DNA from: a virus
Lineage: Duplodnaviria > Caudoviricetes
Length of the DNA stretch: 32,587 nt
IMG/VR virus record: IMGVR_UViG_3300038520_002558
Span: 1-32,587 of that record
Reading direction: 5' to 3' (one strand)
Part shown: piece after piece, positions 636-27,375 of the stretch
How the letters are laid out: each line of letters opens with the position of its first letter
Position numbering within the stretch: the first letter of the stretch is position 1
Position numbers and translations under genes: made by a program
Notes under the pieces: generated by a model
What the model saw: the letters and a program-made list of their open reading frames with translations, nothing else
Told to the model about the DNA's origin: nothing
Database searches by the model: none

Positions 636-2493
636 CATTGCTGAGCTGATGCGTGGAGCTTTAGAGGCGTTCCGTCCGCCGGAGAAGCTGACGCTTAGTG
701 AGTGGGCTGATCGTTATGCGTTCTTGTCTGCTGAATCGAGCGCGGAAGCTGGCCGATGGCACACGCTGCCGTATCAGAAAGGAATGATGGACGCAGTGAC
801 TGATCCGGCTGTGGAGCAGATCACGGTGATGAAGTCAGCGCGTGTGGGTTACACCAAGATGGTCAACCACGCGATTGGTTATCACGTCCATCAGGACGCT
901 TGCCCAATCATGGTTGTGCAGCCGACTGTGGAGGACGCGCAGGGTTACTCGAAAGAAGAGATCGCCCCGATGTTGAGGGACACGCCTTGTCTAGCTGGCT
1001 TGGTGAGTGAGTCGAAAGCAAAGGACGGGAACAACACGATTCTGCAGAAAAATTTCCCCGGCGGCACGTTGTCGCTGGTGGGGGCGAACTCACCGCGTGG
1101 CTTCAGGCGTGTGAGTAGGCGTGTTGTTTTGTTTGATGAGGTTGACGGTTATCCGGCATCAGCAGGATCTGAGGGTGATCAAATCAAGCTGGGCATTAAG
1201 CGGACTGAGTATTACTGGAACCGCAAGATCATTGCCGGCAGCACACCAACGGTCAAGGACTTCAGCCGCATCGAGCGGATGTTTGAGGAGTCAGATCAGC
1301 GCCGTTACTACTGCCCTTGTCCAGATTGTGGCCACATGCAATATCTGAAGTGGGCAAATATCCGGTGGACTGACAACGATCCTGAGACTGCGGCTTATGC
1401 GTGCGAGAGCTGCGGCACGTTGATCCCCCACAGCAAAAAACGGTGGATGGTTGAGCGCGGTGAGTGGCGCGCTACTGCGCCGGGCAACGGCAAGCACGCA
1501 GGGTTCCACATCTGGGCGGCGTACAGCTACAGCCCGAACGCGCGCTGGGCTGATCTAGTCGCTGAGTTTTTAGAGGCCAAGTCAAACCCTGAGCAGCTGC
1601 GAGTGTGGATCAACACGACGCTCGGTCAAACGTGGTCAGACGATTACAGCAGCGCGATGAGTGCTGAGGTTTTACTTGAGCGCTGTGAGGATTATCAGGA
1701 GGGAATTTTGCCGGCTGGGGTGCTGGCGGTCACGATCGGCGTTGACGTGCAGGGTGGTGGCGGAACGCTTGGGGAAAGATTGGCAATCAGCGTGTGGGGC
1801 TGGGGTCGGAAGGAAGAAGGCTGGCTGATTCAGTACGTCGAGATTGCAGGAGACCCGACGCGGTCTGAGGTTTGGAAGCGGCTCGATGAGTTTGTGATGC
1901 GCCGTTGGCCGCATGAGCTAGGCGGCAGCTTGAAGGCTGACTTCACTGCTGTTGACTCAGGTGGTTTAGCTACCTCCGAGGTTTATCAGTACGCCAGGGA
2001 GCGAAAGGCGCATGGTGTCATTGCGATCAAAGGTCAGAGTCAGCGGGACAAGCCGCCTATCGGCAAGGCGACAAGGGTGGACATAAATGCAAAAGGCAAG
2101 ACGTTAAAGAAAGGGGCGAGCTTGTTCCCTGTTGGCGTTCACAACATTAAAAACACAATGGCGGGCCGGCTGAAATACACAGAGCCAGGGGAAGGTTATT
2201 TGCATTTCCACGCGACAACTGGAGAGGAGTTTTTCAAGATGCTTACGGCTGAGGCGCAGAAGATTAAATTTGTCAACGGATTCCCGCAGCGGATCTGGGT
2301 AAAGAAAGGCGGTGCTCGGAATGAATCATGGGATGGCTTGATTTATTGCTACGCCTGTTTGCAGTTGCTTTACCGCAAATACGATCGACGAACGATTTGG
2401 GATCAGTTGGAAAAGCGCCTTGAACAGCCGCTAAGATCGAAGGAAGTAAAGGCGAAGCCGGCTGCCTCGTCGTCGTTCGTAAGCAACTGGTGA
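628..2493 (+). CDS. terL: Terminase large subunit (lambda gpA family)
   Basis: Motifs LSEWAD, MKSARVGYT (Walker A), VLFDEVD (Walker B), GSTPT, CPDCG/CESCG, GVDVQ. Start moved to ATG 628 (GGAGG at 614-618). Confidence 0.96.
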   Translation: MADIAELMRGALEAFRPPEKLTLSEWADRYAFLSAESSAEAGRWHTLPYQKGMMDAVTDPAVEQITVMKSARVGYTKMVNHAIGYHVHQDACPIMVVQPTVEDAQGYSKEEIAPMLRDTPCLAGLVSESKAKDGNNTILQKNFPGGTLSLVGANSPRGFRRVSRRVVLFDEVDGYPASAGSEGDQIKLGIKRTEYYWNRKIIAGSTPTVKDFSRIERMFEESDQRRYYCPCPDCGHMQYLKWANIRWTDNDPETAAYACESCGTLIPHSKKRWMVERGEWRATAPGNGKHAGFHIWAAYSYSPNARWADLVAEFLEAKSNPEQLRVWINTTLGQTWSDDYSSAMSAEVLLERCEDYQEGILPAGVLAVTIGVDVQGGGGTLGERLAISVWGWGRKEEGWLIQYVEIAGDPTRSEVWKRLDEFVMRRWPHELGGSLKADFTAVDSGGLATSEVYQYARERKAHGVIAIKGQSQRDKPPIGKATRVDINAKGKTLKKGASLFPVGVHNIKNTMAGRLKYTEPGEGYLHFHATTGEEFFKMLTAEAQKIKFVNGFPQRIWVKKGGARNESWDGLIYCYACLQLLYRKYDRRTIWDQLEKRLEQPLRSKEVKAKPAASSSFVSNW

Positions 2494-2497
2494 AGCC

Positions 2498-3070
2498 GTG
2501 ACGCAACTACCGGACAAAATCAGGGCAGGCGACACGATCAAATGGCGTCACGATGCCAGCAGAGACAACCTCGGCAACTCGATCACTAGCAGTGATTACA
2601 CGCTGAAGTATTACTTCCGCACAAATACAAACAACGAAGGGCACACAGCCACAGGCACAGCCTTTGGCACGGGCTGGGAGTTCACCATTAGCGCATCTGA
2701 TTCTGATGGGTTTGATGCTGGTGACTGGTTTTTCCAAGCGGTTGCAACTAAAAACAGCGAGTCAGTAACCCTGACCACTGGCCGGCTCGAAGTGCTGGCT
2801 GGTTTGGATTACACCGGAACGCCAGCTGCACTCGATGACCGCACACAGGCAGAAAAAGATCTAGCCGCTGTTCAAAAGGCAATCAGAGATATTGCTAACG
2901 GCAACACCGTCAAGAGTTACAGCGTTGCAGGTCGCAGTCTGACTCGATATGAAATGTCAGATTTGATTGCTTTAGAAAGTAAGCTCAAGTTCGAGGTGCA
3001 GCGTGAGCGCCGCGCCGCGCTGATTGCTAATGGCAAAGGCGATCCATTTAACCTCTTTGTTCGTTTCTGA
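2498..3070 (+). CDS. Head completion/head-tail joining protein, gpW-like C-terminus with an N-terminal beta-rich domain
   Basis: Lies between TerL and portal. C-terminal VKSYSVAGRSLTRYEMSDLIAL resembles gpW-like proteins. Confidence 0.65.
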   Translation: MTQLPDKIRAGDTIKWRHDASRDNLGNSITSSDYTLKYYFRTNTNNEGHTATGTAFGTGWEFTISASDSDGFDAGDWFFQAVATKNSESVTLTTGRLEVLAGLDYTGTPAALDDRTQAEKDLAAVQKAIRDIANGNTVKSYSVAGRSLTRYEMSDLIALESKLKFEVQRERRAALIANGKGDPFNLFVRF

Positions 3071-4686
3071 TGAGCCTCGCAACTCGACTCTTTCGGGCTC
3101 TTGGTTATGAGCCACGACGTCCGAGGCGGCGTCAGTATGAAGGCGCGACGATGAGTCGGCTGACGTCTAGCTGGGTGACTAGCGGGACAAGTGCCGATGC
3201 CGAGGTGCATGGCAGCCTTGCCAGGCTGCGCAACCGCGCACGTCAACTTGTGCGGGACTCTGACTATGCACGGCAGGCTAAGCGCGCCGTTATGAACAAC
3301 GTCATCGGGACCGGGATCAAGCTGCAGGCGCAGGTCATGATGCAGCGCGGTGGTCGGCTTGACGAAGAGCTAAACAAGCGCATTGAAAAGGCTTGGAAAT
3401 ATTGGGGATATAAGAGCTATTGCGACGTTGCAGGTCGTCTGTGCTTTGCCGACATTGAGCGCATGATCGTTGGCGCTATGTGTGAGTCTGGCGAGGTATT
3501 CGTCAGAATTATTCGGCGCTCTTTTGGAGGCAGCAAGATTCCCTTTGCGCTGCAAATTTTTGAGAGCGATCAATTAGATGAGACCTACACAGGCAAAGCC
3601 AGCGTTGATGGCAATGAATGGCGCATGGGCGTTGAGGTCGACAAGTTTGGCCGCGCTGTGCGCTATGCGTTTTTGCAGAAGCATCCTGGGGATGCCCCGT
3701 TTAGCGGCACTGCAGCAAAGCGACACCTGATGTTGTCAGCTGACGAGGTGCTGCATCTATATGTTCAGGAACGGCCTGGTCAGACTCGTGGCGTGACTTG
3801 GTTTGCATCAGCAATCAAACGGCTGCATCACTTGGCTGGATATGAGGAAGCTGAGGTCATTCGCGCTCGCGCATCGTCCAGCCTGATGGGCTTCATCACC
3901 ACAACTGAGGGTGAGCTTGGCACTGCCGAGGAGGTCTATGACGGCGACCGCGTTGATTCGTTTGCCCCTGGCGTCTTTAAGTATTTGCAGCCCGGTGAGT
4001 CTGTAACTGTGCCCCAGCTGGACGCACCTGACGGGCAGTTTGAGCCGTTCACGCGCGGGATGCTCCGTGCTGTCGCTGCTGGCATTGGCACGAGTTACGA
4101 GAGCGTGAGCCGTGACTACAGCCAATCGAACTACAGCAGCAGCCGCCTGGCGATGCTGGAAGACCGCGACAACTGGCGATCAATTCAACGTTTTTTGATT
4201 GAAAACTTCCATCAGCCAGTGTTCAATATGTGGCTTGAGATGGCGGTGATGGGCGGTGCTCTTGATCTGCCTGCTTATGAGGCAAACCCTGACCGCTTCC
4301 GGATGGTCAAATGGTGTCCGCGAGCTTATGGCTACGTAGATCCGCAGAAAGAGGTTGCCGCTTACAAGGCAGCAGTGCGGTGCGGATTCAAAACGCTGGC
4401 TGATGTTGTCGCTGAGCAGGGCGGCGACCTAGATGATCTCCTCAAGCAACGTCAGGCAGAGCTTGCGATGCTCGATGAGATGAACATTGTTCTTGATACT
4501 GATCCCAGCGAGGTCAATGGTGGTGGCGGTGTTCAGCCTGGCTTAGGCATGGGCGCTATTCCAGCTTTTGACGACACTGAGCGACCGGGAGAGCAAGAGC
4601 AGCAAGAGCCTGAGGTTGAGGAGATTCCTGTGGAACAGGTTGAGCCTGTAGCTGAGCAGGAGGTGCCAGAAGATGGCGACGATTGA
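3070..4686 (+). CDS. Portal protein, lambda family
   Basis: Motifs LRNRARQLVR, VIGTGIK, RPGQTRGV, DYSQSNYSSSR, VDPQKEV. Acidic C-terminal tail. Confidence 0.95.
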   Translation: MSLATRLFRALGYEPRRPRRRQYEGATMSRLTSSWVTSGTSADAEVHGSLARLRNRARQLVRDSDYARQAKRAVMNNVIGTGIKLQAQVMMQRGGRLDEELNKRIEKAWKYWGYKSYCDVAGRLCFADIERMIVGAMCESGEVFVRIIRRSFGGSKIPFALQIFESDQLDETYTGKASVDGNEWRMGVEVDKFGRAVRYAFLQKHPGDAPFSGTAAKRHLMLSADEVLHLYVQERPGQTRGVTWFASAIKRLHHLAGYEEAEVIRARASSSLMGFITTTEGELGTAEEVYDGDRVDSFAPGVFKYLQPGESVTVPQLDAPDGQFEPFTRGMLRAVAAGIGTSYESVSRDYSQSNYSSSRLAMLEDRDNWRSIQRFLIENFHQPVFNMWLEMAVMGGALDLPAYEANPDRFRMVKWCPRAYGYVDPQKEVAAYKAAVRCGFKTLADVVAEQGGDLDDLLKQRQAELAMLDEMNIVLDTDPSEVNGGGGVQPGLGMGAIPAFDDTERPGEQEQQEPEVEEIPVEQVEPVAEQEVPEDGDD

Positions 4687-7147
4687 AGGGGTTGAGATCG
4701 ATTTGATGCCCACAAAGGGCATGAAGGAAGAAGCGCAGCGTTATCGCGACTGGAAAGCTGATGGCGAGGCGGGCGGCACTGAAGTTGCAGCCCGCAGGGC
4801 CACGCAGATTTTGAGCGGTGATGAGTTAAGCGCCGACACTGTGATTGCCATGAACGCTTGGTTCGCTCGCCACGAAGTGGACAAACAAGGTGAAGGTTTT
4901 AGCCAAGGGGAGGACGGCTATCCTTCGCCCGGCAGAGTTGCATGGGCAGCATGGGGTGGTGACGCTGGAATGAGGTGGAGTGCCGGCAAAGCAGATAGAA
5001 TCAAGGCAATTCGTGATAGGAGCATGGACACGAATCGGGCTGAACCTGGCGAATTATCTGTTGGCGATTTTGTTCAATGGAATTCATCAGGCGGCCAAGC
5101 AAAAGGCAAGATTGACCGCATTGAGCGTGATGGCTCAATCAACGTCCCGGATTCAGAATTCACCATCAACGGTGACGAGGACGACCCCGCTGCCTTGATC
5201 ACTGTTTACCGCGAAGGCGACGAAGGCTGGGAGGAGACTGATGTGCAGGTTGGCCATCGGTTCTCAGCGTTGACCAAGATTCCGGCATTGCGCTGGCTTG
5301 AGGGCAAGACCTACAAGCGCAGCGAGACCACGACCTTTGATGAGGTTGAGGATCGGACTTATCAGTTTCCGTTTTCCTCTGAGTTTCCGGTTGAGCGCTA
5401 TTTCGGCAGCGAAATTCTTAGTCACGACGAAGGCGCAGCTGATCTCGACCGTCTGAATGACAGCGCACCGCTGTTGTTCAATCACGACCCTGATCGTGTG
5501 ATTGGGGTTGTTGAGCGTGCCTACATCGACAAGAAAAAACGTCGCGGATACACGCAAGTGCGGTTCAGCCGCAATGAATTCGCTCAGGAAGTTCTGAGCG
5601 ATGTGAAAGATGGCATCCTTAGAAATGTCTCTTTCGGCTACTCCATTGACAAAATGGAGGAGCGAGAAGGTGGCGACTTTGTTGCCACATCTTGGAGACC
5701 CTATGAGGTTTCGGTTGTTTCGATCCCCGCTGATCCGGGGGTCGGGATCGGCCGTTCCTTAGTGGACTCCGAACCTGCAAAAGCTGCTCCGGCAGCACCT
5801 ACCCAAACTGTTCCTGAAATGGAAAACACTGCACCTGATCTGCAGCAGGTGCGGGCCGAAGCCGCTGAGGCTGAGCGTTCCCGCATCGCTGGTATTTCTG
5901 CCCTTTGCTCTAAGCACAACTTTGAAGACTTGGGCCGCCAGCTCATCGAGTCTGGCCGTTCCATCGATGAAGCCCGCGCTGCCGTACTGGAAAAGCTCGG
6001 CGCTAAGCCTGTTGAAACTGTCAAGCCTGTTGAGCTTGAGCAGCGTGATCACAGCAACTACCAGATTGCTGACGGTCTCCGTGCAATGCTGACCGGCGAC
6101 TGGTCTTCACGCGGTGCCGGACTGGTTCGCGAACTAAGCCAGGAAGTCATGCGCAGTTCTGGCGTTTCTGCCAGCTCTGAGCGTTCTTTCTACGTTCCGT
6201 TCAGCGCACTGACTCGCGCCACCTATGTCACCAGCGGTGCCACCACTGGCGGCAATTTGGTGCAAACCGATCTCCTGGCTGACGACTTCATCGAGGCTCT
6301 GCGTAATGCATCCCCGGTGATGGGCCTGGGCGTGCGCAGCATGACTGGCTTGGTCGGTGATGTAGCAATTCCTCGCCGCTCTGGTGTTGCTTCCACCTAC
6401 TACCTGAGCAGTGAGACAACTGCTATCACGCAGTCTGAGTCCACTTTCGATCAGGTGACGATGTCACCTAAGAATCTGGCAGCACTGTCTAAGTACAGCC
6501 GCCAAACTCTGATCCAGGCCACTCCTGGTATTGAGAGTCTGGTGCGTACTGACCTGACCGATGGCATCCTTGCTTCTTTGGATTCCGCGATTATTAACGG
6601 CTCAGGTTCCTCCGGTCAGCCCACTGGCATCCGGAACGTGTCGGGCATCGGCTCCGTCGCTATGGGCACTAACGGTGCTGCTTTGACGATGGAAAAGGTC
6701 GTTGACCTTGAAACTGAGATCTTGCAGGACAACGCATTGGTGGGTAACGCCATGGCGTATGTGACCAACGCCAAGGTGGTTGCTGGCTTGAAGAAACTGC
6801 GCGCTGGCGGTTCTTCTTCCACTGACGGTTCTTTCCTGTTCAACTCTGACCTGCAGGCCATCGGTCGCGGACCTACTCCGCTGACGCTTAACGGCTACCC
6901 CATCGCCACCACTAACGCCATTCCTTCAAACCTGACTAAGGGTTCCGGATCGAATCTCTCTGCTCTGGTTGCTGGTGACTTCAGCCAGGCAATGGTTGGC
7001 TTCTACGGCAACGGTCTTGAGATCGTTGTTGGTGAAGACAGCGATGACTTCGCCAAGGCTCTCAGCTCTGTTCGCGGCATCATTTCATTTGATGTTGCTG
7101 TCAGGCACGCTCAGTCCTTCGCGAGCATTGAAGACATCGTTGCTTGA
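4673..7147 (+). CDS. Fused head protein: accessory N-terminal domains + HK97-type prohead protease + scaffold + major capsid protein
   Basis: Protease motifs PLLFNHD, VSFGY, YEVSVVSIPAD. Scaffold-like AERSRIAGI...SIDEARAAVL. HK97-fold capsid motifs GGNLV, IINGSG..GQPTGI, LNGYP, GDFSQ. Confidence 0.92.
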   Translation: MATIEGVEIDLMPTKGMKEEAQRYRDWKADGEAGGTEVAARRATQILSGDELSADTVIAMNAWFARHEVDKQGEGFSQGEDGYPSPGRVAWAAWGGDAGMRWSAGKADRIKAIRDRSMDTNRAEPGELSVGDFVQWNSSGGQAKGKIDRIERDGSINVPDSEFTINGDEDDPAALITVYREGDEGWEETDVQVGHRFSALTKIPALRWLEGKTYKRSETTTFDEVEDRTYQFPFSSEFPVERYFGSEILSHDEGAADLDRLNDSAPLLFNHDPDRVIGVVERAYIDKKKRRGYTQVRFSRNEFAQEVLSDVKDGILRNVSFGYSIDKMEEREGGDFVATSWRPYEVSVVSIPADPGVGIGRSLVDSEPAKAAPAAPTQTVPEMENTAPDLQQVRAEAAEAERSRIAGISALCSKHNFEDLGRQLIESGRSIDEARAAVLEKLGAKPVETVKPVELEQRDHSNYQIADGLRAMLTGDWSSRGAGLVRELSQEVMRSSGVSASSERSFYVPFSALTRATYVTSGATTGGNLVQTDLLADDFIEALRNASPVMGLGVRSMTGLVGDVAIPRRSGVASTYYLSSETTAITQSESTFDQVTMSPKNLAALSKYSRQTLIQATPGIESLVRTDLTDGILASLDSAIINGSGSSGQPTGIRNVSGIGSVAMGTNGAALTMEKVVDLETEILQDNALVGNAMAYVTNAKVVAGLKKLRAGGSSSTDGSFLFNSDLQAIGRGPTPLTLNGYPIATTNAIPSNLTKGSGSNLSALVAGDFSQAMVGFYGNGLEIVVGEDSDDFAKALSSVRGIISFDVAVRHAQSFASIEDIVA

Positions 7148-9414: not shown

Positions 9415-9734
9415 TCGGCGCCGCTAAGTATTGGGCTAGCGGCGTTGAAATTGATGACACAGAAGAAGACGCAAAGGTGTTCGGCCTTGAGATGCCAGAT
9501 AAAAAGCGCGTAAGTGACTTCGAGGTTGTGCCTTCTGCATGGCCTGCTGTGTTGTTGTTTTTGACGTTGCAGACCCAGTGGCGTGTTGGTTCTGCTGGGA
9601 TTGTGGGGTTGGACTACAACGCTGTGCGCTGGGTGTTTGAGTTGTACGAGGTCGCTGAGCCGCGAAAAATGCTCGATGATTTGCAGATCATCGAAGCTAC
9701 AGTGGTTGAGACACTAAATGAGCGCGAGAAATAG
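9405..9734 (+). CDS. -1 frameshift extension of tail chaperone (gpT part of gpGT), slippery site GGGAAAC at 9405-9411
   Basis: The -1 frame from 9405 is open (KLIGAAKYWASG...) and is the same frame as ORF 9477-9734 (TQWR...GLDY motif). Confidence 0.85.
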   Translation, partial: GKLIGAAKYWASGVEIDDTEEDAKVFGLEMPDKKRVSDFEVVPSAWPAVLLFLTLQTQWRVGSAGIVGLDYNAVRWVFELYEVAEPRKMLDDLQIIEATVVETLNEREK

Positions 9735-9736
9735 CC

Positions 9737-11506
9737 ATGGCTATGGACATGACCACCGCGCTGACTATCAAGGCAAATGTTGTTGGTCAGAGTCAGATTG
9801 GCGGATTAGAGACAGGGCTCAAGAAGGTCACGGGTCAGACCAATAAGGCAACGACGGCAATGGGCCGATTGCGTGGTGCTGCTTCTGGCGCGCTAGGTGC
9901 TATGCGCAGTTTTTTGCCTGTTCTTGGCGTTGCAGGGATTGCAGCATTCGCGACGCGCAATTTGAACGCGGCTGACTCAATGTCTAAGTTGTCGCAGAGG
10001 ACTGGCATTGCGGCTCCAATGCTAGACAAATTTCGCAAGGTTGCTGAATTAAGCGACACAAGCATTGGTAGCCTTGAGCGTGCTTTCCCTGCACTGACAA
10101 AGAACATTGACGACGCTGCACAGAAAGGCAAGGGACCGGCTTTCGATGCATTCACACGCCTAGGTGTTGCGATTACTGACTCCAGTGGAAAAGTTCGTAG
10201 CGCTGATCAGGTGATGCTGGATATATCAGACCGTTTTGCCAAAATGGCTGACGGCACTGAAAAAGCAGCCCTTGCATCTGCTGTGTTTGGCACTCGTATT
10301 GGTTCCGAGCTAATCCCATTGCTAAATAGCGGAGGCGATGCTGTCAGGAACATGGGCACAGCATTGACTCAAGAGTTTGCAGACAAAGCGGCAGCCTTCA
10401 ACGATCGCTTAGAAAATATGCAAGAAAAGCTTGGCGATCTTGGGCTGCGACTAACTGAGGCTTTACTGCCTGCTTTAGAAGGGTTAGTTAGTGTTGTTGA
10501 GAAAGCGGCGACTGTATTCAATTCATTGCCTGGGCCACTTCAAACCATTGTCGGCACAATCGGTGGCATTAGTGCGGCATTGCTTGTTTTGAGCCCTGTT
10601 TTATCAGCCGTAACTGCCGCTTTTGGTGCGCTTGCTAGCTTAAAAATCGGTGCAACGATTGCAGGTTGGACGACGGTGATAGTTAAGATTGGCGCTTCGC
10701 TTGGGGGTTTGCTTAAGATCCTTGCGGCTGTATTCACCGGGCCTGTTGGCTGGGTTGCATTGCTTGTAGGGGCTGGCGTTGCTATTTACAATTTTAGAGA
10801 TGAAATTGGTGATGCTTTAGGCTCTGTAGGCGATTTTTTCAAAGACTCCTTTAGGTATATTGTAGACACTTTTGTTGATCCAGTCAGCGACACCATGTCG
10901 CGGCTTGTTGAAAGCTTCAGGTCAATCTTTGCAAATGTTGGACAATACATAAGAGCGCCTTTTGTGACTGCCTTCACCTTTGTCAGGCAAGTTGTGAACA
11001 ACATGCTTAAAGGTGTTGTTAAGGCTATTAACTCAGTCGTGAAAGCCGTCAACGTAGTAATCAGAGGCGCAAACAGCGCGCTTGCAAAGCTCGACTTGCC
11101 TCGTGTGCCTCTTGTCCCTGGAGTAACCCTGCCTGAATTTGCTGAGGGTGGTGTAGTCAATAGGCCAACTGTTGCGATGGTTGGCGAAGGCGGTGAGCCT
11201 GAATACATCATCCCATCTTCAAAGATGGCGCGTGCTTCTGCGAATTACCTAGGAGGCATGCGCGGCAAGTCGGTCATCCCTGCGTTTGCTGATGGTGGCG
11301 TGGTTGGCCCAGGCGCAAGCTCAGGTGGCATGGGCGGAGGGGCCGCTAACACTACTGTGCAAATAACCACAGGGCCTGTGTTGCAGCAAGATGGGCAAAA
11401 CTATGTGACCGTTGGAGATCTTGAACGAGCGTTGCAAGATTTCAGTTCTCAAGTTTTTCGAAATAGCAGAAGCTATGGCGGCAGGCGTTATCAGGGGGTT
11501 CTCTAA
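9737..11506 (+). CDS. Tape measure protein
   Basis: Ala/Gly/Leu-rich helical protein after the chaperone, with a C-terminal FAEGGVV..PT..VGEGGEPEYIIP motif. Confidence 0.9.
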   Translation: MAMDMTTALTIKANVVGQSQIGGLETGLKKVTGQTNKATTAMGRLRGAASGALGAMRSFLPVLGVAGIAAFATRNLNAADSMSKLSQRTGIAAPMLDKFRKVAELSDTSIGSLERAFPALTKNIDDAAQKGKGPAFDAFTRLGVAITDSSGKVRSADQVMLDISDRFAKMADGTEKAALASAVFGTRIGSELIPLLNSGGDAVRNMGTALTQEFADKAAAFNDRLENMQEKLGDLGLRLTEALLPALEGLVSVVEKAATVFNSLPGPLQTIVGTIGGISAALLVLSPVLSAVTAAFGALASLKIGATIAGWTTVIVKIGASLGGLLKILAAVFTGPVGWVALLVGAGVAIYNFRDEIGDALGSVGDFFKDSFRYIVDTFVDPVSDTMSRLVESFRSIFANVGQYIRAPFVTAFTFVRQVVNNMLKGVVKAINSVVKAVNVVIRGANSALAKLDLPRVPLVPGVTLPEFAEGGVVNRPTVAMVGEGGEPEYIIPSSKMARASANYLGGMRGKSVIPAFADGGVVGPGASSGGMGGGAANTTVQITTGPVLQQDGQNYVTVGDLERALQDFSSQVFRNSRSYGGRRYQGVL

Positions 11507-17981: not shown

Positions 17982-18374
17982 ATGCTCAAAACTCTTCTTG
18001 CGAGTGGTGTCGCCGTTTCAGCAGTTGTGCTGGGATCTCCTGCGATCGCCGGTCCTTATGTGAACGTCGAGAATAACGCTGGCTTTGCTGGCGGTGATGG
18101 TCTCGACATGGATTTTGTAGGATCAACTACAGATTTCCATGTGGGGATTGAAGGCGGTGGTGATAACACCTCCTGGTACATGCAAGCCGGACCTGCTTTG
18201 ATCAGCCCGCAGGGAGGCGAGGCCGATGTTGAGTTCTCCGGCAAGATTGGTGGCTCTGTGGTCGTGACTGCAGATGAAAAGCTGAGCCTTTACGGCGAAA
18301 TCAGTTTTATCACTGTTGACGACTTCGACGCTGCCAATGTCGGCACCAAGATTGGCGCCAAATACAACTTCTGA
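17982..18374 (+). CDS. Small outer-membrane beta-barrel protein
   Basis: Sec signal peptide (...SPAIA/G), alternating amphipathic strands, C-terminal GAKYNF beta-signal ending in Phe. Confidence 0.8.
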   Translation: MLKTLLASGVAVSAVVLGSPAIAGPYVNVENNAGFAGGDGLDMDFVGSTTDFHVGIEGGGDNTSWYMQAGPALISPQGGEADVEFSGKIGGSVVVTADEKLSLYGEISFITVDDFDAANVGTKIGAKYNF

Positions 18375-18405
18375 GCTAGTTTTAATTAAGACCTCACACG
18401 TCCCT

Positions 18406-18429
18406 GGCCCCTTTATCGGGGCCTTTTTT
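18406..18429 (+). terminator. Intrinsic terminator
   Basis: GGCCCC-TTTATC-GGGGCC followed by T6. Confidence 0.8.
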
Positions 18430-18431
18430 AT

Positions 18432-18662
18432 ATGCAAAAGATCTACAACCTACTTGCCGTCTTGGCATTCGTGATGTCCGGAACAATGGCTGTCGGTGGC
18501 GTGTTGTTTTACACACGAATCCCATCGCTGACTAAGCACTACATGAATGAGTTGCAGGGCGAGTTGACCAAGATGGTCACAGAGATGGTGAACGGTCAGA
18601 TCGACAAGGCTTTGCCAGAACTGCCTGAACAAACCGGCTTGCCAATCAAGCCGCCTTTTTAG
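18432..18662 (+). CDS. Small membrane protein (N-terminal TM helix, Pro-rich tail)
   Basis: Hydrophobic LLAVLAFVMSGTMAVGGVLFY segment. Confidence 0.7.
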   Translation: MQKIYNLLAVLAFVMSGTMAVGGVLFYTRIPSLTKHYMNELQGELTKMVTEMVNGQIDKALPELPEQTGLPIKPPF

Positions 18663-18991
18663 GCTTGCAAGTATCGGTCAAAAACCATTTTTGTGTTTTC
18701 GATTGCATCGTCGCTGTGAGCCTCAGGCTCGAAGCCTTCCGCGTTGAGTTTTGCCGTGTCAAGTTCTGGCGAGGGTGCTTCTGGTTTCTGCTCAAACGAA
18801 GCTAGCCATTCCCGCAGGGCTTGGCCTGTGGGTGTTGATTTAGGCCATCGGACAAATTTCAGCAATGCTGCTGGCTCAGTAAACAGCATTGATGTTCCGC
18901 CAGACTTGCAGACATAGACAAGCGGCGGACCTTCGCGGTGTTTTGTGGCTTCAATCCACAGCTGACCTGCTGTAAACCGATCTAATTTCAT
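18659..18991 (-). CDS. Hypothetical protein
   Basis: Fills the gap between two + genes exactly. Start taken at MKLDRF (alternative 18997). Confidence 0.6.
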   Translation of the reverse strand: MKLDRFTAGQLWIEATKHREGPPLVYVCKSGGTSMLFTEPAALLKFVRWPKSTPTGQALREWLASFEQKPEAPSPELDTAKLNAEGFEPEAHSDDAIENTKMVFDRYLQA

Positions 18992-19667
18992 GCCCAAGAT
19001 TCAGAGGATTGGTGTTGGAACGGTAGGCGTGCCAAGCGTTGAAGCAAGGCAGATGATTCCACCGCCAAGATTGCCAGCCGAGCCACCTGTCACATTGATG
19101 CTGGGTTTTCCAGTAGCAGACATGCCAGGCGGTGAAATCCCACATTATGAGCCGCTGAACTTCACGCCAGGTCAGCACACGCACCAAGCCGCACCAACAC
19201 CAGAACCCTACACAGAGGAAAAACCGGCTGATCGCTCGAAACAGCCGGCTTTAGCACCCCCGCCAGCTGCACCGTCAACAGCTGACATTCCAAAGGTAGC
19301 CACTGAGCTGCCTTGTCCTGCACCTGATGCAATCCCTTTAGGTGCAAAAAATAAATCGCAAACAGCGGTCATCATTGGATACGAAGTTGTTAACGGAAAG
19401 TGCGAGGCGATGTATGAGCAGCTAGACGTGCCAACGATTATTGGAAATTATCTGCCAGGCGCGCCTGTTGTTTCGACGACTGCGAGTGTTGCTGTGGTTG
19501 CGACAACATCAGCGATCATCGCAAGGCCTTTAGGCGACATTTTGTTGAAGGTCATTAAACCGATCGTCAAGAAGACGATTAAAAAGATCAAGGAGAAGCT
19601 GGGGAAGAAAGTTGCTGTTGAGTCTGTGTTCCAGCGTCAAAAGTTTCAGCGGTCTTTGCGGAAGTAG
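18990..19667 (+). CDS. Pro-rich protein with a Cys pair, C-terminal TM helix and basic tail
   Basis: PPVTL.LG.PV.DMPG motif, CP...KCE, hydrophobic TTASVAVVATTSAIIA, then KVIKPIVKKTIKKIK. Confidence 0.75.
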   Translation: MPKIQRIGVGTVGVPSVEARQMIPPPRLPAEPPVTLMLGFPVADMPGGEIPHYEPLNFTPGQHTHQAAPTPEPYTEEKPADRSKQPALAPPPAAPSTADIPKVATELPCPAPDAIPLGAKNKSQTAVIIGYEVVNGKCEAMYEQLDVPTIIGNYLPGAPVVSTTASVAVVATTSAIIARPLGDILLKVIKPIVKKTIKKIKEKLGKKVAVESVFQRQKFQRSLRK

Positions 19668-20319
19668 GAATTGAATGTATGTGGGGCAGCAGTGTGCCTG
19701 GCGGGTTAGTCAAGACCACATCAGCGCAGATGCCGCGATATGGACTCTTGGGATGGAAGCTTATGCCTTTGCGTAGCATCTCTCCGCAGTTTTTGAGCCT
19801 AGCGATCTCGTAATTCAACCTCTTGTCAGCAAGCTGTTGCTCTAAAAGCGCCACTTGCTTTTCCGCCGCTCGATGACAGCTCTTGATATGAGAGCGATCT
19901 AACGGTATCGAAATTGTGGCAGTGATTCCGCCGTTGATCGAGTAGTTGTTTTTTTGCCCTGTACGAATTGGACGATAAAAAAGGACATTCCCCGGATTAT
20001 CGGGGACGCCATCTGGGATGGCATTGCCTTCCTCGTCAAACGCGCCAACCAAATCGAGAGTGTCATAAACAGGCTCGTTGTAGTAGGACTCATAAGGCTG
20101 TGACCAGCCAACAGTTGTGCTTAGGAAAGGACTGATGGTGAGGCTTGTTCCTTGACAACTGAAGTTGCCATATTGATAGACAAAATTTTTGCCAGGCACA
20201 ACCTGTACTGCTTGATTGGTCACTGATCCAGAACTATTTGCGACTGGAGCGGCGGTGCTTGAGACCTGCGCCTGAACCGGAGCGGAAAGCAGCAAAAGTG
20301 TTGCTAAGACTCGCTTCAT
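19588..20319 (-). CDS. Secreted protein with four Cys, putative beta-hairpin and coiled coil (candidate oligomeric outer-membrane pore)
   Basis: Signal peptide (...APVQA/Q), strands TSLTISPF and YSINGGITATISIPLD, then long helices. Confidence 0.75.
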   Translation of the reverse strand: MKRVLATLLLLSAPVQAQVSSTAAPVANSSGSVTNQAVQVVPGKNFVYQYGNFSCQGTSLTISPFLSTTVGWSQPYESYYNEPVYDTLDLVGAFDEEGNAIPDGVPDNPGNVLFYRPIRTGQKNNYSINGGITATISIPLDRSHIKSCHRAAEKQVALLEQQLADKRLNYEIARLKNCGEMLRKGISFHPKSPYRGICADVVLTNPPGTLLPHIHSIPTSAKTAETFDAGTQTQQQLSSPASP

Positions 20320-20765
20320 TGCGTGAAGGTGCTGAGCGTCTCCGTTAAAGATTCAATGTCAGTTGTTTTGTTGATTACCGTGTGCTGTGTCAGCCCTGGT
20401 CCGCTGTAAGTTTCGATGAACTGAAATGATGCGCCAGCTTCAACGATTTGCCATTCTGGCTTGCTAGCAGGATTAAGTCCTTTCCAATGGCTCGTCACGC
20501 CGTTGAGGTTGTTAGTTGTAGTGATCAGTTTGTCTGTAGCGACAGCACCGCCAACTGGCGCAACATTTGTTCCGCTGACGGTTAGCTCATAGCCAGTCCG
20601 ATACTGATACGAGTTGATCACCTCAGTAATTTTCTGCGTTGTCTTCGTAGTTGAGCTGAGATTCCCCTGCTGAAAGTTTGGCACCACCGGGATTGACTTT
20701 GCTCTTGGAGCGGCAAGAGCAATGGCGCAAAAAACACCCCAAGCAACCCAAATGCCAGTCCACAT
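20316..20765 (-). CDS. Secreted beta-rich protein (paralog of 20765-21259)
   Basis: Hydrophobic N-terminal signal, IPVVPNF, T-rich strands, VSGTNV and AGASFQFIETY motifs. Confidence 0.75.
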   Translation of the reverse strand: MWTGIWVAWGVFCAIALAAPRAKSIPVVPNFQQGNLSSTTKTTQKITEVINSYQYRTGYELTVSGTNVAPVGGAVATDKLITTTNNLNGVTSHWKGLNPASKPEWQIVEAGASFQFIETYSGPGLTQHTVINKTTDIESLTETLSTFTQ

Positions 20766-21259
20766 CACTTAATGGTCAGCTCTTGAATAACTTGTCCAAC
20801 TGCGGATGTGCCAGCGCCACCAGCAGTGATTGAAAGAGCCCCGCCAGAATCAATAGTTCCAGCTAGGTCGCTCGACACACCGCCAGAAGTTGTGGTCACA
20901 GAGCCAAAAACCGGCAGGGCTGGAACTACTCCGTTTGTGACTGTTGTTGATAAGACGCTTGGGACGTCATCGCCTTCAATATATGACTCTGAATACGAAA
21001 AGCTGTCACCAGCAGTAGTGACACTGAACTCGCCAGGAGTGTAGCCCAGAGCAGTACCGGAAGTAAGTGTCCCCAGAGCAGGAGCAGTGTCCAGAGTGAC
21101 GTTAGAGCCAGATACTGCCAGCGAACTCGGGACGCGATTTGCGACTGATCCTGCGCCATCCACTTGGAGCTGTACGCTTGATTGAATTCTATGAGTGATG
21201 TCTGCCTGGGCAGGCAATCCCAGAAGCGTCACACCCAATACAAAAGCAATGCGTTTCAT
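20765..21259 (-). CDS. Secreted S/T/G-rich beta protein (candidate filament subunit)
   Basis: Signal peptide (...LPAQA/D), VSGSNV and AGDSFSYSESY motifs, terminal strand QELTIK. Confidence 0.8.
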   Translation of the reverse strand: MKRIAFVLGVTLLGLPAQADITHRIQSSVQLQVDGAGSVANRVPSSLAVSGSNVTLDTAPALGTLTSGTALGYTPGEFSVTTAGDSFSYSESYIEGDDVPSVLSTTVTNGVVPALPVFGSVTTTSGGVSSDLAGTIDSGGALSITAGGAGTSAVGQVIQELTIK

Positions 21260-21516
21260 TTGGGCTTTGCGGTGGTGGGTTCTTGCTTGATTGTAGGTTC
21301 TTCTTTTTTCTTTCTATTGGCACCAACGGACAACCCAAATGACGCGGCAGTTCCTGACAGGATTGAAGCTGGATAGGTGGGATCAAGCGATTGCTGGAAC
21401 ACCCCAAGATAATTAGCCGTCAGGATCACCATTGCCCATCCGAGCAACACAACCTTGACAACATCGCCAAGACGGGAGTTTCCATCGTCCTGTTGCTTGT
21501 CCGTTGACTCTGCCAT
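21256..21516 (-). CDS. Two-TM membrane protein
   Basis: Two hydrophobic segments and a basic C-terminus. First gene of the minus-strand operon. Confidence 0.7.
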   Translation of the reverse strand: MAESTDKQQDDGNSRLGDVVKVVLLGWAMVILTANYLGVFQQSLDPTYPASILSGTAASFGLSVGANRKKKEEPTIKQEPTTAKPK

Positions 21517-21540
21517 GATTAAAGGAGCGTGAGGCGGGGC

Positions 21541-21792
21541 ATGGTCGAAGTCTGGGCGGCTGTGGCTGGAGCGTCAATAACCACTGCGGCACTAGGGGTT
21601 TCTGGCATCAACCGTCAGAGCCGTCAAGGACAAGACTCGCTAATTCGTCTGACTACCGCTGTCGATAACCTGTCCAGCCGGCTCGATATTTTGCATCAAG
21701 ACATCAAGAGCAAAGACGTTGAGGTGTTTGGGCGACTTTCTGAGCTTGAACGTGCGGTAGCGCGATTGGAAGGCCACAGCGATCGGCACTAA
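21541..21792 (+). CDS. TM + coiled-coil protein (holin/lysis-associated candidate)
   Basis: N-terminal hydrophobic helix, heptad C-terminus (RLSELERAVARLEG), upstream of the peptidase. Confidence 0.55.
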   Translation: MVEVWAAVAGASITTAALGVSGINRQSRQGQDSLIRLTTAVDNLSSRLDILHQDIKSKDVEVFGRLSELERAVARLEGHSDRH

Positions 21793-21819
21793 CGTATTGA
21801 TGTTGTTCAAGGCAAGGCA

Positions 21820-21990
21820 ATGGTTCTGATCATCAAGCCAATCCTGATGGCATTTCTAAAATCTGATGCTGTGAAGCGTTTGGTTTTAGATTTGCTTCGG
21901 GCTTACGCGGAAACCACAGACAACACAATCGACGATCAGGTTTGCGATTATGTGGAGAAGAACTTGATTGGACCACGTGTGGAAAAGTGA
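21820..21990 (+). CDS. 56-aa protein MVLIIKPILMAFLKSDAVKRLVLDLLRAYAETTDNTIDDQVCDYVEKNLIGPRVEK (not in ORF track)
   Basis: Translated by hand, fills an intergenic gap. TDN..DD motif recalled from small phage lysis-region proteins. Confidence 0.7.
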   Translation: MVLIIKPILMAFLKSDAVKRLVLDLLRAYAETTDNTIDDQVCDYVEKNLIGPRVEK

Positions 21991-22133
21991 AACCATCGGT
22001 TCTGTTTGCAGCTGGTTGGTTCGTCGCCGGAGGCGCTGTCATGCTTTTGCTCTACAGCAGCGTTATCATTTTTATAGGCGGATACAACGTTGGCGAAAGC
22101 AGCTGTCGCCCGGCATTATTAGAGCGACGTTGA
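21987..22133 (+). CDS. Small hydrophobic membrane peptide
   Basis: GTGA overlap with the previous stop, long hydrophobic stretch. Confidence 0.5.
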   Translation: MKPSVLFAAGWFVAGGAVMLLLYSSVIIFIGGYNVGESSCRPALLERR

Positions 22134-22144
22134 TCGGCATAGCA

Positions 22145-22846
22145 GTGACTCTTTCACTACTGCCGTTTTTCGAGTTTTTTAAGCGAGATGTGCCTCATCG
22201 CGCAGCTGCTGTGAAGCTGCTAGAGGATTCGCTGCCGCGTGAGTTGCTAGAGGAAGATGCCCTCTGGGTTCAAGCATGGAAGGCAAGCGGCATAGATCAA
22301 GAGGTGTTCTTGCCTCGCTATTTTCGACAACAAGAGCTAAGCAGGGGGGAGCGTAAATGTTTTACGTCAGCAGCTGCCATGGTTGCTGCGCACGCGCACC
22401 GCGTGAACACACAAGAACAGTATGAGTCAGTTCTCAGGCAGTATGGCGACACAACTTCTGTCGGGGCTCACGTCAAAGCACTGAGAAGCCTTGGGTTGAC
22501 AGTTACGTTTACACAGTCAGCAGACGCGGAAGACGTAATGGAAGCAATCGACAGTGGCATCCCTGTGTTGGTGGGGTGGTTGCATCAGGGCGACTTATTG
22601 CAGGGTGAACCGCCGATGTGCGACAAGAACGCTTGTGGGCATTGGTCGGTCATCCATGGCTATAGCGGCAGGTACACCAACGACGCAAGCTGGCTGATGT
22701 CTGATCCTGCAGGGATGCCAAGCATTGAGCACGGCTCACACAATTTGGCTCTCTCTGGCCATCGTGTAAGCGTGCGTCAAGCTGCGTTTCATCAACGCTG
22801 GCAAGTTGATGGCCCGAAATCTGGCTGGGCGATATTCGCCGAATGA
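22145..22846 (+). CDS. C39-like cysteine peptidase (putative endolysin)
   Basis: YFRQ...RKCFTSAAAM (Q, C), GHWSVIHGY (H), SDPAG (D). Start uncertain (GTG 22145 or TTG 22130). Confidence 0.75.
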   Translation: MTLSLLPFFEFFKRDVPHRAAAVKLLEDSLPRELLEEDALWVQAWKASGIDQEVFLPRYFRQQELSRGERKCFTSAAAMVAAHAHRVNTQEQYESVLRQYGDTTSVGAHVKALRSLGLTVTFTQSADAEDVMEAIDSGIPVLVGWLHQGDLLQGEPPMCDKNACGHWSVIHGYSGRYTNDASWLMSDPAGMPSIEHGSHNLALSGHRVSVRQAAFHQRWQVDGPKSGWAIFAE

Positions 22847-23062: not shown

Positions 23063-23581
23063 ATGGCGGTTCTGTGTGATTGGGAGATTAAGGCCAGATG
23101 CGAGAAGGGCAAAATGATCCAGCCATTCGATGAAAGCCTTTTGAATCCGGCAAGCCTTGATATGCGCTTGGGTTCTTACCTGATGATTGAGAGCATTTAC
23201 AGCCCTGAGCTGATCCGAATCGACATTTCAGACAGGACAAAGGATGAGCCGTTCATGCTGCAGTCCGGTGAGTTTTGCTTGGCTGAGACACTTGAGGTCT
23301 TTAACGTCCCCGACGACATCAGTTGTCAGTTTGTACTCAAGTCAAGCCGAGCCCGCGAAGGTTACAATCATCTGCTTGCTGGCTGGGTTGATCCTGCGTT
23401 CAACTCGAGCAGATTGACGCTTGAGTTGAAGAATGAGCGCCTACACCATGCTTTGCCGTTGTATCCAGGTTTGAAAATTGGCCAAATAGTGTTTCACTCA
23501 ATGTCAAACGTCCCGATGCGCAGCTATCGCGAGACAGGCCATTACAACAATCACTTGACAGTCATGCCTTCTGTGGCATGA
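23063..23581 (+). CDS. dcd: dCTP deaminase
   Basis: NPASLDMRLG, KSSRAREG, GWVDP.F, TLELKN, LYPGLKIGQIVF motifs. Confidence 0.92.
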   Translation: MAVLCDWEIKARCEKGKMIQPFDESLLNPASLDMRLGSYLMIESIYSPELIRIDISDRTKDEPFMLQSGEFCLAETLEVFNVPDDISCQFVLKSSRAREGYNHLLAGWVDPAFNSSRLTLELKNERLHHALPLYPGLKIGQIVFHSMSNVPMRSYRETGHYNNHLTVMPSVA

Positions 23582-26759: not shown

Positions 26760-26959
26760 TTTAAGGCCTCACACGCTGGCTGCCAGCCCTGCTCACAGTG
26801 CAATTTTTGCTGCTGGTACAAAGTGTCAGTGAGACTGATCCACAGAGCACTGCCAAACAAGACGCAGAAAACTGCAACAATGATGGTGTTGGTCTTGGGG
26901 CTGCGGTGTTCCGGGTCGTAGAAACCTGGACTGCGATAGTTGATGTCTTTGCGGTTCAT
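26756..26959 (-). CDS. Small membrane protein with C-terminal C..GW..AC
   Basis: One TM helix, ATGA overlap with the pentapeptide gene. Confidence 0.65.
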   Translation of the reverse strand: MNRKDINYRSPGFYDPEHRSPKTNTIIVAVFCVLFGSALWISLTDTLYQQQKLHCEQGWQPACEALK

Positions 26960-27339
26960 AGCTCTTTCTTTGTGGTTTTGATGCGGCCAATGCCTGGCGG
27001 CCAAATTGTGGTTTCATCCCATCTGGCTTTTGACAAATCTGCGCCAACAAAGCTTGCGTGTTGCAAGTTAGCGTCATTAAAAAGTGCCCAGCGGAGATTT
27101 GCTCCCTTGAAAATTGCTGATTTCAAAAGAGCGGCATTGAAATTTGCATATTTAGCTGCGCAGTAGCGAAAGTCAGCACTGCGCAAATTTGCTTGCCTGA
27201 AATTAGCGCCGATTAAATTCGCTTCTCGAAAATTTGATCCACGCAAATTGTATGAGTGAAAAGAAACTTTGAAGACGTCGCCAAATTCAGATTCTGGGAT
27301 TTCTTTGGCTTGCATAGGCAGAGAGGCAAAAGGGCTCAT
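26956..27339 (-). CDS. Pentapeptide repeat protein
   Basis: Tandem A(N/D)(L/F)xx repeats (ANLIG ANFRQ ANLRS ADFRY...) ending in TIWPPG. Start at 27339 or 27315. Confidence 0.9.
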   Translation of the reverse strand: MSPFASLPMQAKEIPESEFGDVFKVSFHSYNLRGSNFREANLIGANFRQANLRSADFRYCAAKYANFNAALLKSAIFKGANLRWALFNDANLQHASFVGADLSKARWDETTIWPPGIGRIKTTKKEL

Positions 27340-27346
27340 GTGCAGC

Positions 27347-27375
27347 AGTATGCCGTCAGTGGTATTCCATGTCAA
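27347..27375 (-). promoter_or_regulatory. Sigma70-like promoter TTGACA-17-CATACT containing the variant site TGGAATACCA (27360-27369)
   Basis: Consensus -35, 17-nt spacer, ATG 7 nt after the -10. Confidence 0.75.

Follow-up and report, generated by a model that had tools for sequence, protein, structure and literature searches.

What would a tailed phage gain from a block of genes for apparent envelope proteins, placed between its tail fibre and its lysis genes? The question is raised by positions 17982 to 21516 of the virus record IMGVR_UViG_3300038520_002558 (Caudoviricetes, IMG/VR), whose 32,587 nucleotides are called the window here. An earlier note, made from this DNA, had proposed that a trans-envelope pore or filament system is encoded there and that about 11% of the genome is spent on it; the share was reproduced (3535/32587 bases, 10.8%). 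The reading favoured here, with a confidence somewhat short of even, is a host-derived outer-membrane ring with a surface tube, tethered to the inner membrane and acting on the living infected cell. Six late genes make up the cassette, and the block comprises the following.

21256..21516, minus strand: E, a small inner-membrane protein with a basic tail (DUF6450, phrog_721, T4-GC218).
20765..21259, minus strand: C, a secreted beta protein and paralog of B (phrog_564, T4-GC237; 'OMP1' in some records).
20316..20768, minus strand: B, a secreted protein (DUF6322, phrog_650, T4-GC236) that starts at GTG 20768 or ATG 20765.
19588..20319, minus strand: A, a secreted four-cysteine protein (phrog_848/1755, T4-GC235, 'gp165') and candidate outer-membrane ring subunit.
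18990..19667, plus strand: D, a proline-rich protein (14% Pro; phrog_570, T4-GC234) and candidate inner-membrane tether.
18432..18662, plus strand: S76 (phrog_568, labelled 'plasmid stability', T4-GC414).
17982..18374, plus strand: the OMP gene, phage OMP-like (PF24653, phrog_417, DUF680), which adjoins the cassette in this lineage and does not belong to its core.

In the proposed mechanism, A, B and C would be exported into the host envelope late in infection. A would form a ring in the outer membrane. On this ring, B and C would pack alongside one another into a beta-walled tube, and D would tether the ring and tube to the inner membrane. The infected cell would gain a surface-exposed tube taken over from an appendage system of its host. 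As to the purpose, it is our guess that the tube shields the infected cell or positions it, be it as a defence from grazers or other phages or for sticking to new hosts, while the virions mature. The linkage of the genes, their late signals, the signal-peptide pattern and the host relatives were observed directly. The shapes of the monomers were predicted, and the assembly is inferred.

All seven open reading frames (ORFs) were recovered at the coordinates and on the strands given in the earlier note, as were the stop/start overlaps of the minus-strand operon (ATGA at E/C and B/A, TGATG at C/B). A and D are convergent, with a 3' overlap of 80 bases. The 32.6 kb record is 97% complete (CheckV), and the gene set of the window includes a lambda-type terminase, portal, capsid and non-contractile tail (Pfam and PHROGs matches). 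The host can be inferred to be a picocyanobacterium from the names of the phage records with an A homologue, 430/443 of which are Synechococcus, Prochlorococcus or cyanophage, the rest being marine or uncultured viruses.

For the linkage count, four seeds were used (this phage, P-SSP7, S-H68 and P-HS2), each with its 80 best viral loci, wherever the flank sufficed. The loci within one seed are related, and the count is to be read as four lineages (myo-, podo- and siphovirus) and not as 320 events. B adjoins A in 289/289 eligible loci (79/79, 72/72, 65/65 and 73/73 by seed). C is present in 74/74, 59/59 and 64/64 eligible loci of three lineages and in 0/69 podovirus loci, and S76 is distributed likewise (56/56, 68/70 and 71/71; 0/58 in podoviruses). 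D accompanies A in 65/65, 76/76 and 76/76 eligible loci of three lineages and in at least 61/68 podovirus loci, while E was found in 70/70, 66/66, 55/55 and 36/53 loci of the four lineages; the podovirus count of D and the myovirus count of E are undercounts, as the flank rule searched the wrong side. Homologues of the proposed system do co-occur across unrelated cyanophages. Judged by gene content, B is the universal partner of A and the minimal unit is D-E-B-A.

The cassette occurs in 443 to 455 phage records of GenBank with three virion types. In a whole-record search of 20 hand-picked phages, A was found in eight and a distant A in S-CAM7, and 11 gave none. E was found in the same eight and in S-N03, which has no A; it usually travels with the cassette and yet is separable, lying far from A in S-TIM5. 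S-TIP37 carries A. Full phage cassettes were also seen on contigs of 188-194 kb within bacterial assemblies (one labelled Nonlabens), which are probably whole cyanomyovirus genomes binned with the cells. Myovirus cassettes add T4-GC219 (locus position 9653-10273), which has a membrane helix at the N-terminus and a glycine-rich hydrophobic hairpin at the C-terminus; it is not adjacent in this phage.

The OMP gene had been put forward as the outer-membrane channel, and this part of the earlier proposal found no support. Its product does belong to PF24653 (120.3 bits; Pfam cut-off 27), a family described as an incomplete six-stranded barrel that is predicted to dimerise (bioRxiv 10.64898/2026.10.24.761521, as far as the available text goes). 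The gene is adjacent in 48/48 close relatives, 12/65 myovirus loci and 0/50 and 0/63 loci of the remaining lineages. P-SSP7 and P-HS2 do not have it, other genomes have it at another place and the A-less ACG-2014f carries it; its distribution among the 20 phages does not track A. The wider idea of an envelope structure built by the phage stands, on the envelope proteins and their co-occurrence, with A in place of the OMP protein as the candidate for the membrane ring. A is also the better channel candidate.

Signal peptides were assigned by a rule (a hydrophobic core, a small residue at -3 and A/G/S at -1) rather than by SignalP. The rule holds in 153/154 distinct B and 50/50 distinct C sequences, in agreement with the earlier prediction for both, and the same pattern was recognised by eye in A and in the product of the OMP gene. 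The four cysteines noted in mature A are invariant in 138/138 aligned sequences. A Cys at the predicted cleavage site was found in none of A, B, C and the OMP protein, and no class III signal with N-methyl motif (PF07963) was matched in A, B or C, while the control pilin of S-CAM7 was. D contains a Cys pair, a C-terminal membrane helix from residue 160 and a basic tail, and neither a signal peptide nor a lipobox could be recognised on it by sequence rule or inspection. E had been called a two-transmembrane protein: one helix passes the hydropathy cut-off, the second is weak and stays below it, and the P-SSP7 record annotates two membrane helices for the E orthologue. In S76, hydropathy gives an N-terminal membrane helix that is followed by an amphipathic helix and a Pro-rich end. 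Scans of the cassette proteins against Pfam, PHROGs and NCBIfam returned only families of unknown function.

In 60/61 myovirus loci, TAAATA, which we take to be the T4 late-promoter core, is found no more than 60 bases upstream of C, compared with 762/6100 shuffles; a stricter late-promoter pattern was matched in 13/66. No promoter stood out in the window itself. In P-SSP7, genes 29-51 are given as late, citing Lindell 2007 (PMC7885011, in its available part), and the cassette corresponds to genes 42-45 of this late set.

The gene cluster itself is already in print. Sullivan et al. 2010 listed the hypothetical T4-GCs 218, 219, 234, 235 and 237 with a 'plasmid stability' gene in 15/16 cyanomyoviruses, the exception being S-PM2 (PMC3037559, as far as available). 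By orthology E is 218, D is 234, A is 235, B is 236, C is 237 and S76 is 414; the earlier note had likewise mentioned similar uncharacterised proteins in T4-like cyanophages. In the available supplement of that paper, the proteomics column is blank for T4-GC218 and 234-237, while the structural genes there read YES; the virion proteomes compared are the published myovirus ones, none being of this phage. Together with the same cassette across unrelated tails and the conserved signal-peptidase sites, the blank rows support the earlier claim of host-envelope proteins rather than virion parts. That the proteins are instead tail, collar or ejection parts with uncleaved N-termini is very improbable on the same three grounds, despite the late position of the genes after the tail fibre and a phage tail stem as the top Foldseek row for B (E 6e-3).

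Monomers were modelled with AlphaFold2 (AF2), A from a 138-sequence alignment and B from a 110-sequence alignment. For B (mean predicted local distance difference test, pLDDT, 85.4; predicted template-modelling score, pTM, 0.49), strands 9-32 and 100-124 of the mature chain and a small insert were predicted. The N- and C-terminal strands form a two-stranded ribbon, 24 residues long. In the alignment, all columns for residues 13-21 are polar, and the ribbon is polar on both faces over its middle; therefore, it is not a membrane hairpin. Because a bare polar ribbon of 24 residues cannot be stable alone, B would have to polymerise, and the earlier idea of polymerising subunits is upheld to the extent of this monomer model. 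The structure matches of B (VIA-align) are all weak: the lysenin pore at Z 4.5 (root-mean-square deviation 5.4, 52 residues aligned) and the phi29 collar at Z 3.0. The best Foldseek row, the tail stem of phage Andhra, is not significant. All of the best weak matches are stems of oligomeric beta-barrel tubes, and only the ribbon aligns. C is a paralog of B (hhalign probability 93.8%, E 1.7e-7), and its clusters in the ESM Atlas carry DUF6322.

The A model (pLDDT 70.9, pTM 0.35) shows a long hairpin and a 43-residue helix at 125-167. Alignment columns 43-55 and 109-123 alternate between hydrophobic and polar, as in outer-membrane strands. The span between the two strands amounts to 28, 53, 63, 73 or 123 residues depending on the lineage, as would be expected of a variable outer extension, and most lineages have a long, acidic hairpin tip. 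With one hairpin of ~10 angstrom width per helix, n copies of A would form a 2n-stranded barrel over an n-helix barrel. It is from these predicted shapes of A and B and the membrane-type alternation that the A ring with its B/C tube is derived. The fold list for A contained neither TolC/OEP nor CsgG, and the hairpin was barely probed since the helix filled the list. A sequence search of the PDB with profiles of A, B and C gave nothing below E 0.02, and the ESM Atlas held only the proteins' own viral clusters, with no models.

What is new here is that distant homologues of A occur on cyanobacterial chromosomes. At first, the cassette had been considered 'virus-only', as a close-pattern scan of 185,579 genomes gave 23 loci, of which 22 contain additional cassette genes and were read as phage DNA; this was overturned by a wider A profile, built with the S-CAM7 family included. 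The wide profile matched 12/401 cyanobacterial genomes, one being the phage-type cassette of the genome at the centre of the sample, which leaves 11/400. In Pseudomonadota it matched 1/401 genomes, on the sample centre's own phage-like contig of 423 bases. The proposed gene-neighbourhood check on cyanobacterial chromosomes has thus revealed a related cluster. Chromosomal and phage A agree over the C-terminal half (profile probability 98%), with the four Cys invariant.

The 10 strongest chromosomal loci were taken for context, and one at E 8e-4 was left out. Pfam scans of 63/117 ORFs identified the housekeeping proteins ClpB, QueA, GlyS, UvrC, NusB, PhoH and CysK as neighbours and no phage genes among those scanned. 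No Pfam family was assigned to the chromosomal A or its secreted neighbours, and D, E or S76 was matched in none of the 10/10 loci. One to five secreted-looking Ser/Thr-rich ORFs (by eye) stand beside A in 8/8 loci with two-sided context, among which are two closely related pairs; two further loci end at contig edges. One of these ORFs has homologues, in tandem arrays, in 6/301 genomes of its picocyanobacterial family. In a per-locus search, secreted ORFs matched the B or C profile in 4/6 loci of this family (E 4e-5 to 3e-3); in the five loci gained through this family, the sequence did not extend far enough to include A. A profile of the host secreted ORFs scored 30.2 against B, compared with at most 12.4 for 30 column shuffles, where two of the six rows are mispicked opposite-strand ORFs. 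Three secreted neighbours match the OMP profile weakly. By gene content, the chromosomal system is a patchy one of A and secreted paralogs, without inner-membrane or lysis genes.

Two phages extend this picture. The weak match in S-CAM7 is a short A with four Cys, preceded by a secreted strand-rich ORF. In the Vibrio jumbo phage vB_pir03 (locus 2908-4417), an A-like gene is preceded by a secreted beta-rich gene, and its product has six close homologues, other Vibrio phages among them. As side observations, in S-CAM7 (locus 2334-3206 and 5016-5399) the short host-type A and its secreted partner lie ~1.8 kb from a phage type IV pilin (PF07963), with no D/E nearby. In three chromosomal loci (4541-5041; 749-1267; 5804-6250), the gene after A is a secreted ORF that is rich in Cys and has a Pro tail; it has no Pfam family and no D match, and its make-up is similar to that of D. 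The tandem secreted arrays have TPR-like and methyltransferase-like neighbours (by eye), an arrangement also seen in cell-surface islands.

The chromosomal relatives point to an ancestral role of the system other than lysis. A more far-reaching suggestion, which should be taken as tentative, is that A and the B/C family form an undescribed class of bacterial surface tubes, in which an outer-membrane ring, made of subunits with a single hairpin each, nucleates a hollow, beta-walled filament of several paralogs. Some cyanobacteria would carry it in surface islands, and most oceanic cyanophages would have captured it and added inner-membrane tethers. If true, the new class might account for the unexplained spinae or fibres of cyanobacteria, and a tube on infected cells would alter their grazing, sinking, sticking or reinfection.

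Several points weigh against the surface tube. The confidence of the A model is modest, as its pTM shows, and neither A nor B has a significant fold match in Foldseek or VIA-align. Ordinary topology would place the termini of A on the periplasmic side, in which case the tube, too, could lie within the periplasm. The link from the host ORFs to B/C is weak (hhalign probability 41%, E 2.8e-4). In larger-genome cyanobacteria most neighbours scored like shuffles against B/C, and the secreted neighbours there, in S-CAM7 and in pir03 scored no better with the B/C profile than one control ORF. The chromosomal cluster has no known function, and no paper on it was found. Lastly, a late cassette that lies beside the lysis genes, or in their slot in sipho- and podoviruses, and that has gained inner-membrane partners also fits lysis.

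This last point leads to the close rival, a spanin-like role, which has a sizeable though clearly minority share of our confidence. Here, D, S76 and E would connect the ring-and-tube parts to the inner membrane, and after the wall has been cut these parts would pull the membranes towards each other or perforate the outer membrane, which would let the progeny out. E stands head-to-head with a probable lysis module, 12 bases apart:

21529..22846, plus strand: three small proteins of 87, 56 and 48 amino acids and a C39-peptidase endolysin (22130-22846).

The endolysin matches phrog_10051 (E 4.9e-40), and its gene lies beside the cassette in 47/47 eligible close relatives, an arrangement that, like the late timing (TAAATA upstream of C and the late P-SSP7 genes), favours lysis. 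Small genes like those of the module flank lysozymes in cassette-less phages (by eye and custom hidden Markov models), and the cassette of S-SBP1 is placed between small genes resembling those on either side of the S-CBP1 lysozyme. The C39 family is missing from 7/8 cassette-bearing records, and D, E and S76 are phage-only additions. Marine cyanophages, with or without the cassette, are listed as spanin-less (PMC6139136, as far as available). However, Syn5, P60 and S-PM2 lack both spanins and the cassette and still lyse, Syn5 and P60 within 1 to 1.5 h, and the position behind the tail fibre serves more generally as a plug-in site. A lipobox was found on no part, and no lineage has lost B, even though the shape of a rigid polar ribbon is not that of a fusogen. 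A strict swap of endolysin for cassette was considered and rejected: both are present in this lineage and in DSL-LC03, and neither in Syn5, S-TIP28 and WH11-B. In DSL-LC03 (locus 9544-11193), an annotated autotransporter beta-barrel gene was also noticed between two endolysin genes and the cassette.

One point for the surface tube over lysis is that chromosomes are not a place where one would expect a tool for lysis, and the relatives there have no lysis genes. That this phage has its own endolysin module, and that 11/20 hand-picked phages, including the fast-lysing Syn5 and P60, do without A, was counted in the same direction.

A closed conduit that spans the periplasm, TolC-like in plan, for nutrient import or late export of a phage product, is unlikely. 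It would suit the modelled hairpin-plus-helix subunit A, the estimated lengths of the helix (~65 angstrom) and the ribbon (~80 angstrom) could span the periplasm, and pstS, talC or psbA lie next to the cassette in some myoviruses. On the other hand, no ATPase, transporter or cargo gene is linked, and the host versions have no inner-membrane parts. Still less probable is that the proteins act in the thylakoid lumen, perforating the thylakoid layers around virions, or that A is a pore-forming toxin against a neighbour or grazer. Sec signals can target the thylakoid lumen in cyanobacteria, the genes are nearly restricted to cyanobacteria and their phages, and B weakly resembles pore stems. Against this, Vibrio jumbo phages, which infect cells without thylakoids, also have an A-like gene next to a secreted beta-rich one, the B ribbon is not amphipathic, and A has a long, acidic hairpin tip in most lineages.

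Two further features lie between the genes of the block:

18659..18997, minus strand: a soluble ORF of 112 amino acids (phrog_37139), an optional insert between S76 and D, outside the cassette.
18406..18430, plus strand: an intrinsic-terminator-like hairpin (18406-18423) with T run between the OMP gene and S76, a consensus match only.

The former had been overlooked in the earlier note; it occurs in 35/59 eligible close relatives and in 0 loci of the other three lineages, and a homologue is found in S-CBS3, a phage without the cassette. The B/A junction also varies. A plain ATGA overlap (20316-20319, minus strand) is found in 64/64 window-like loci, and in other lineages the start of A lies within B in the -1 frame (ATG at -54/-56 or -45 codons). 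This frame is open for at least 40 codons in 66/67 myovirus and 65/65 P-HS2-like loci, compared with 18% and 8% of codon shuffles. This start of A inside B accounts for the truncated annotations of A in public records. Elsewhere in the window, a single ORF of 824 amino acids (4673-7147) combines a TUDOR-like domain, prohead protease and major capsid protein, a dCTP deaminase gene occupies 23063-23581, and a pentapeptide-repeat-like protein (judged by eye) is encoded in the early region (26956-27375, minus strand).

The cassette phages infect the most abundant marine phototrophs, and the cassette has had no assigned function since 2010. No functional study of it was found in the literature covered, which falls short of most subscription journals, and papers on DUF6322, DUF6450, PF24653 or the PHROG numbers amounted to 0. 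Either leading reading, if true, gives an answer: how spanin-less cyanophages pass the outer membrane, or how the surface of infected cells is remodelled. The chromosomal relatives offer another, phage-free way to approach the system, and the podovirus version, with four genes, occurs in engineerable phages.

The apparatus fits none of the known families with which it was compared. TolC/OEP proteins contain two internal repeats with four membrane strands per chain and belong to PF02321. TolC/OEP and CsgG pores have, like A as predicted here, a membrane beta-hairpin followed by a long periplasmic helix, and a barrel made of several chains. A differs from TolC/OEP by one hairpin and one long helix per chain and four conserved Cys, and no Pfam match was found for it at E 0.01 (hence no PF02321). 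Oligomeric beta-barrel stems (lysenin and anthrax PA pores, phi29/Andhra lower collars, FliF and SpoIIIAG collars) have, like B, one long two-stranded ribbon per subunit; unlike them, the B ribbon is made of the two termini and is polar on both faces, and Z does not exceed 4.5. Toxins of the aerolysin/lysenin/PA type need an amphipathic inserting hairpin on the stem subunit, which B lacks (polar 13-21). Type IV pilins are set apart by the class III signal and N-methyl motif that A, B and C do not have.

Spanins (lambda Rz/Rz1 and T1 gp11; PMC6139136, in its available part) resemble the cassette in lateness, non-virion status, inner-membrane anchors combined with an outer-membrane part, disulfides and proximity to lysis genes. 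At lysis, spanins are required to rupture the outer membrane. S76 has the topology of the i-spanin of a two-component pair (an N-terminal helix and a periplasmic helical domain); no spanin family was matched for it in Pfam, PHROGs or NCBIfam, and it is absent from podovirus cassettes. D has a C-terminal membrane helix like the unimolecular spanin T1 gp11, but no signal or lipobox. The cassette differs from spanins: it encodes no lipoprotein, comprises four to six genes where spanins take one or two, includes secreted beta subunits and has chromosomal relatives. Spinae or fibres are surface structures of unicellular cyanobacteria whose genes are largely uncharacterised (PMC4390875, as far as available); the likeness is one of surface structure and serves as a lead only. 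A further comparison is with the cluster of Sullivan 2010 (PMC3037559, in its available part), which has the same genes and co-occurrence. There it was unexplained, possibly mobile and myoviral; here it is compact, in a lambda-like siphovirus, without an adjacent GC219, and tied to podo- and siphoviruses and to host chromosomes.

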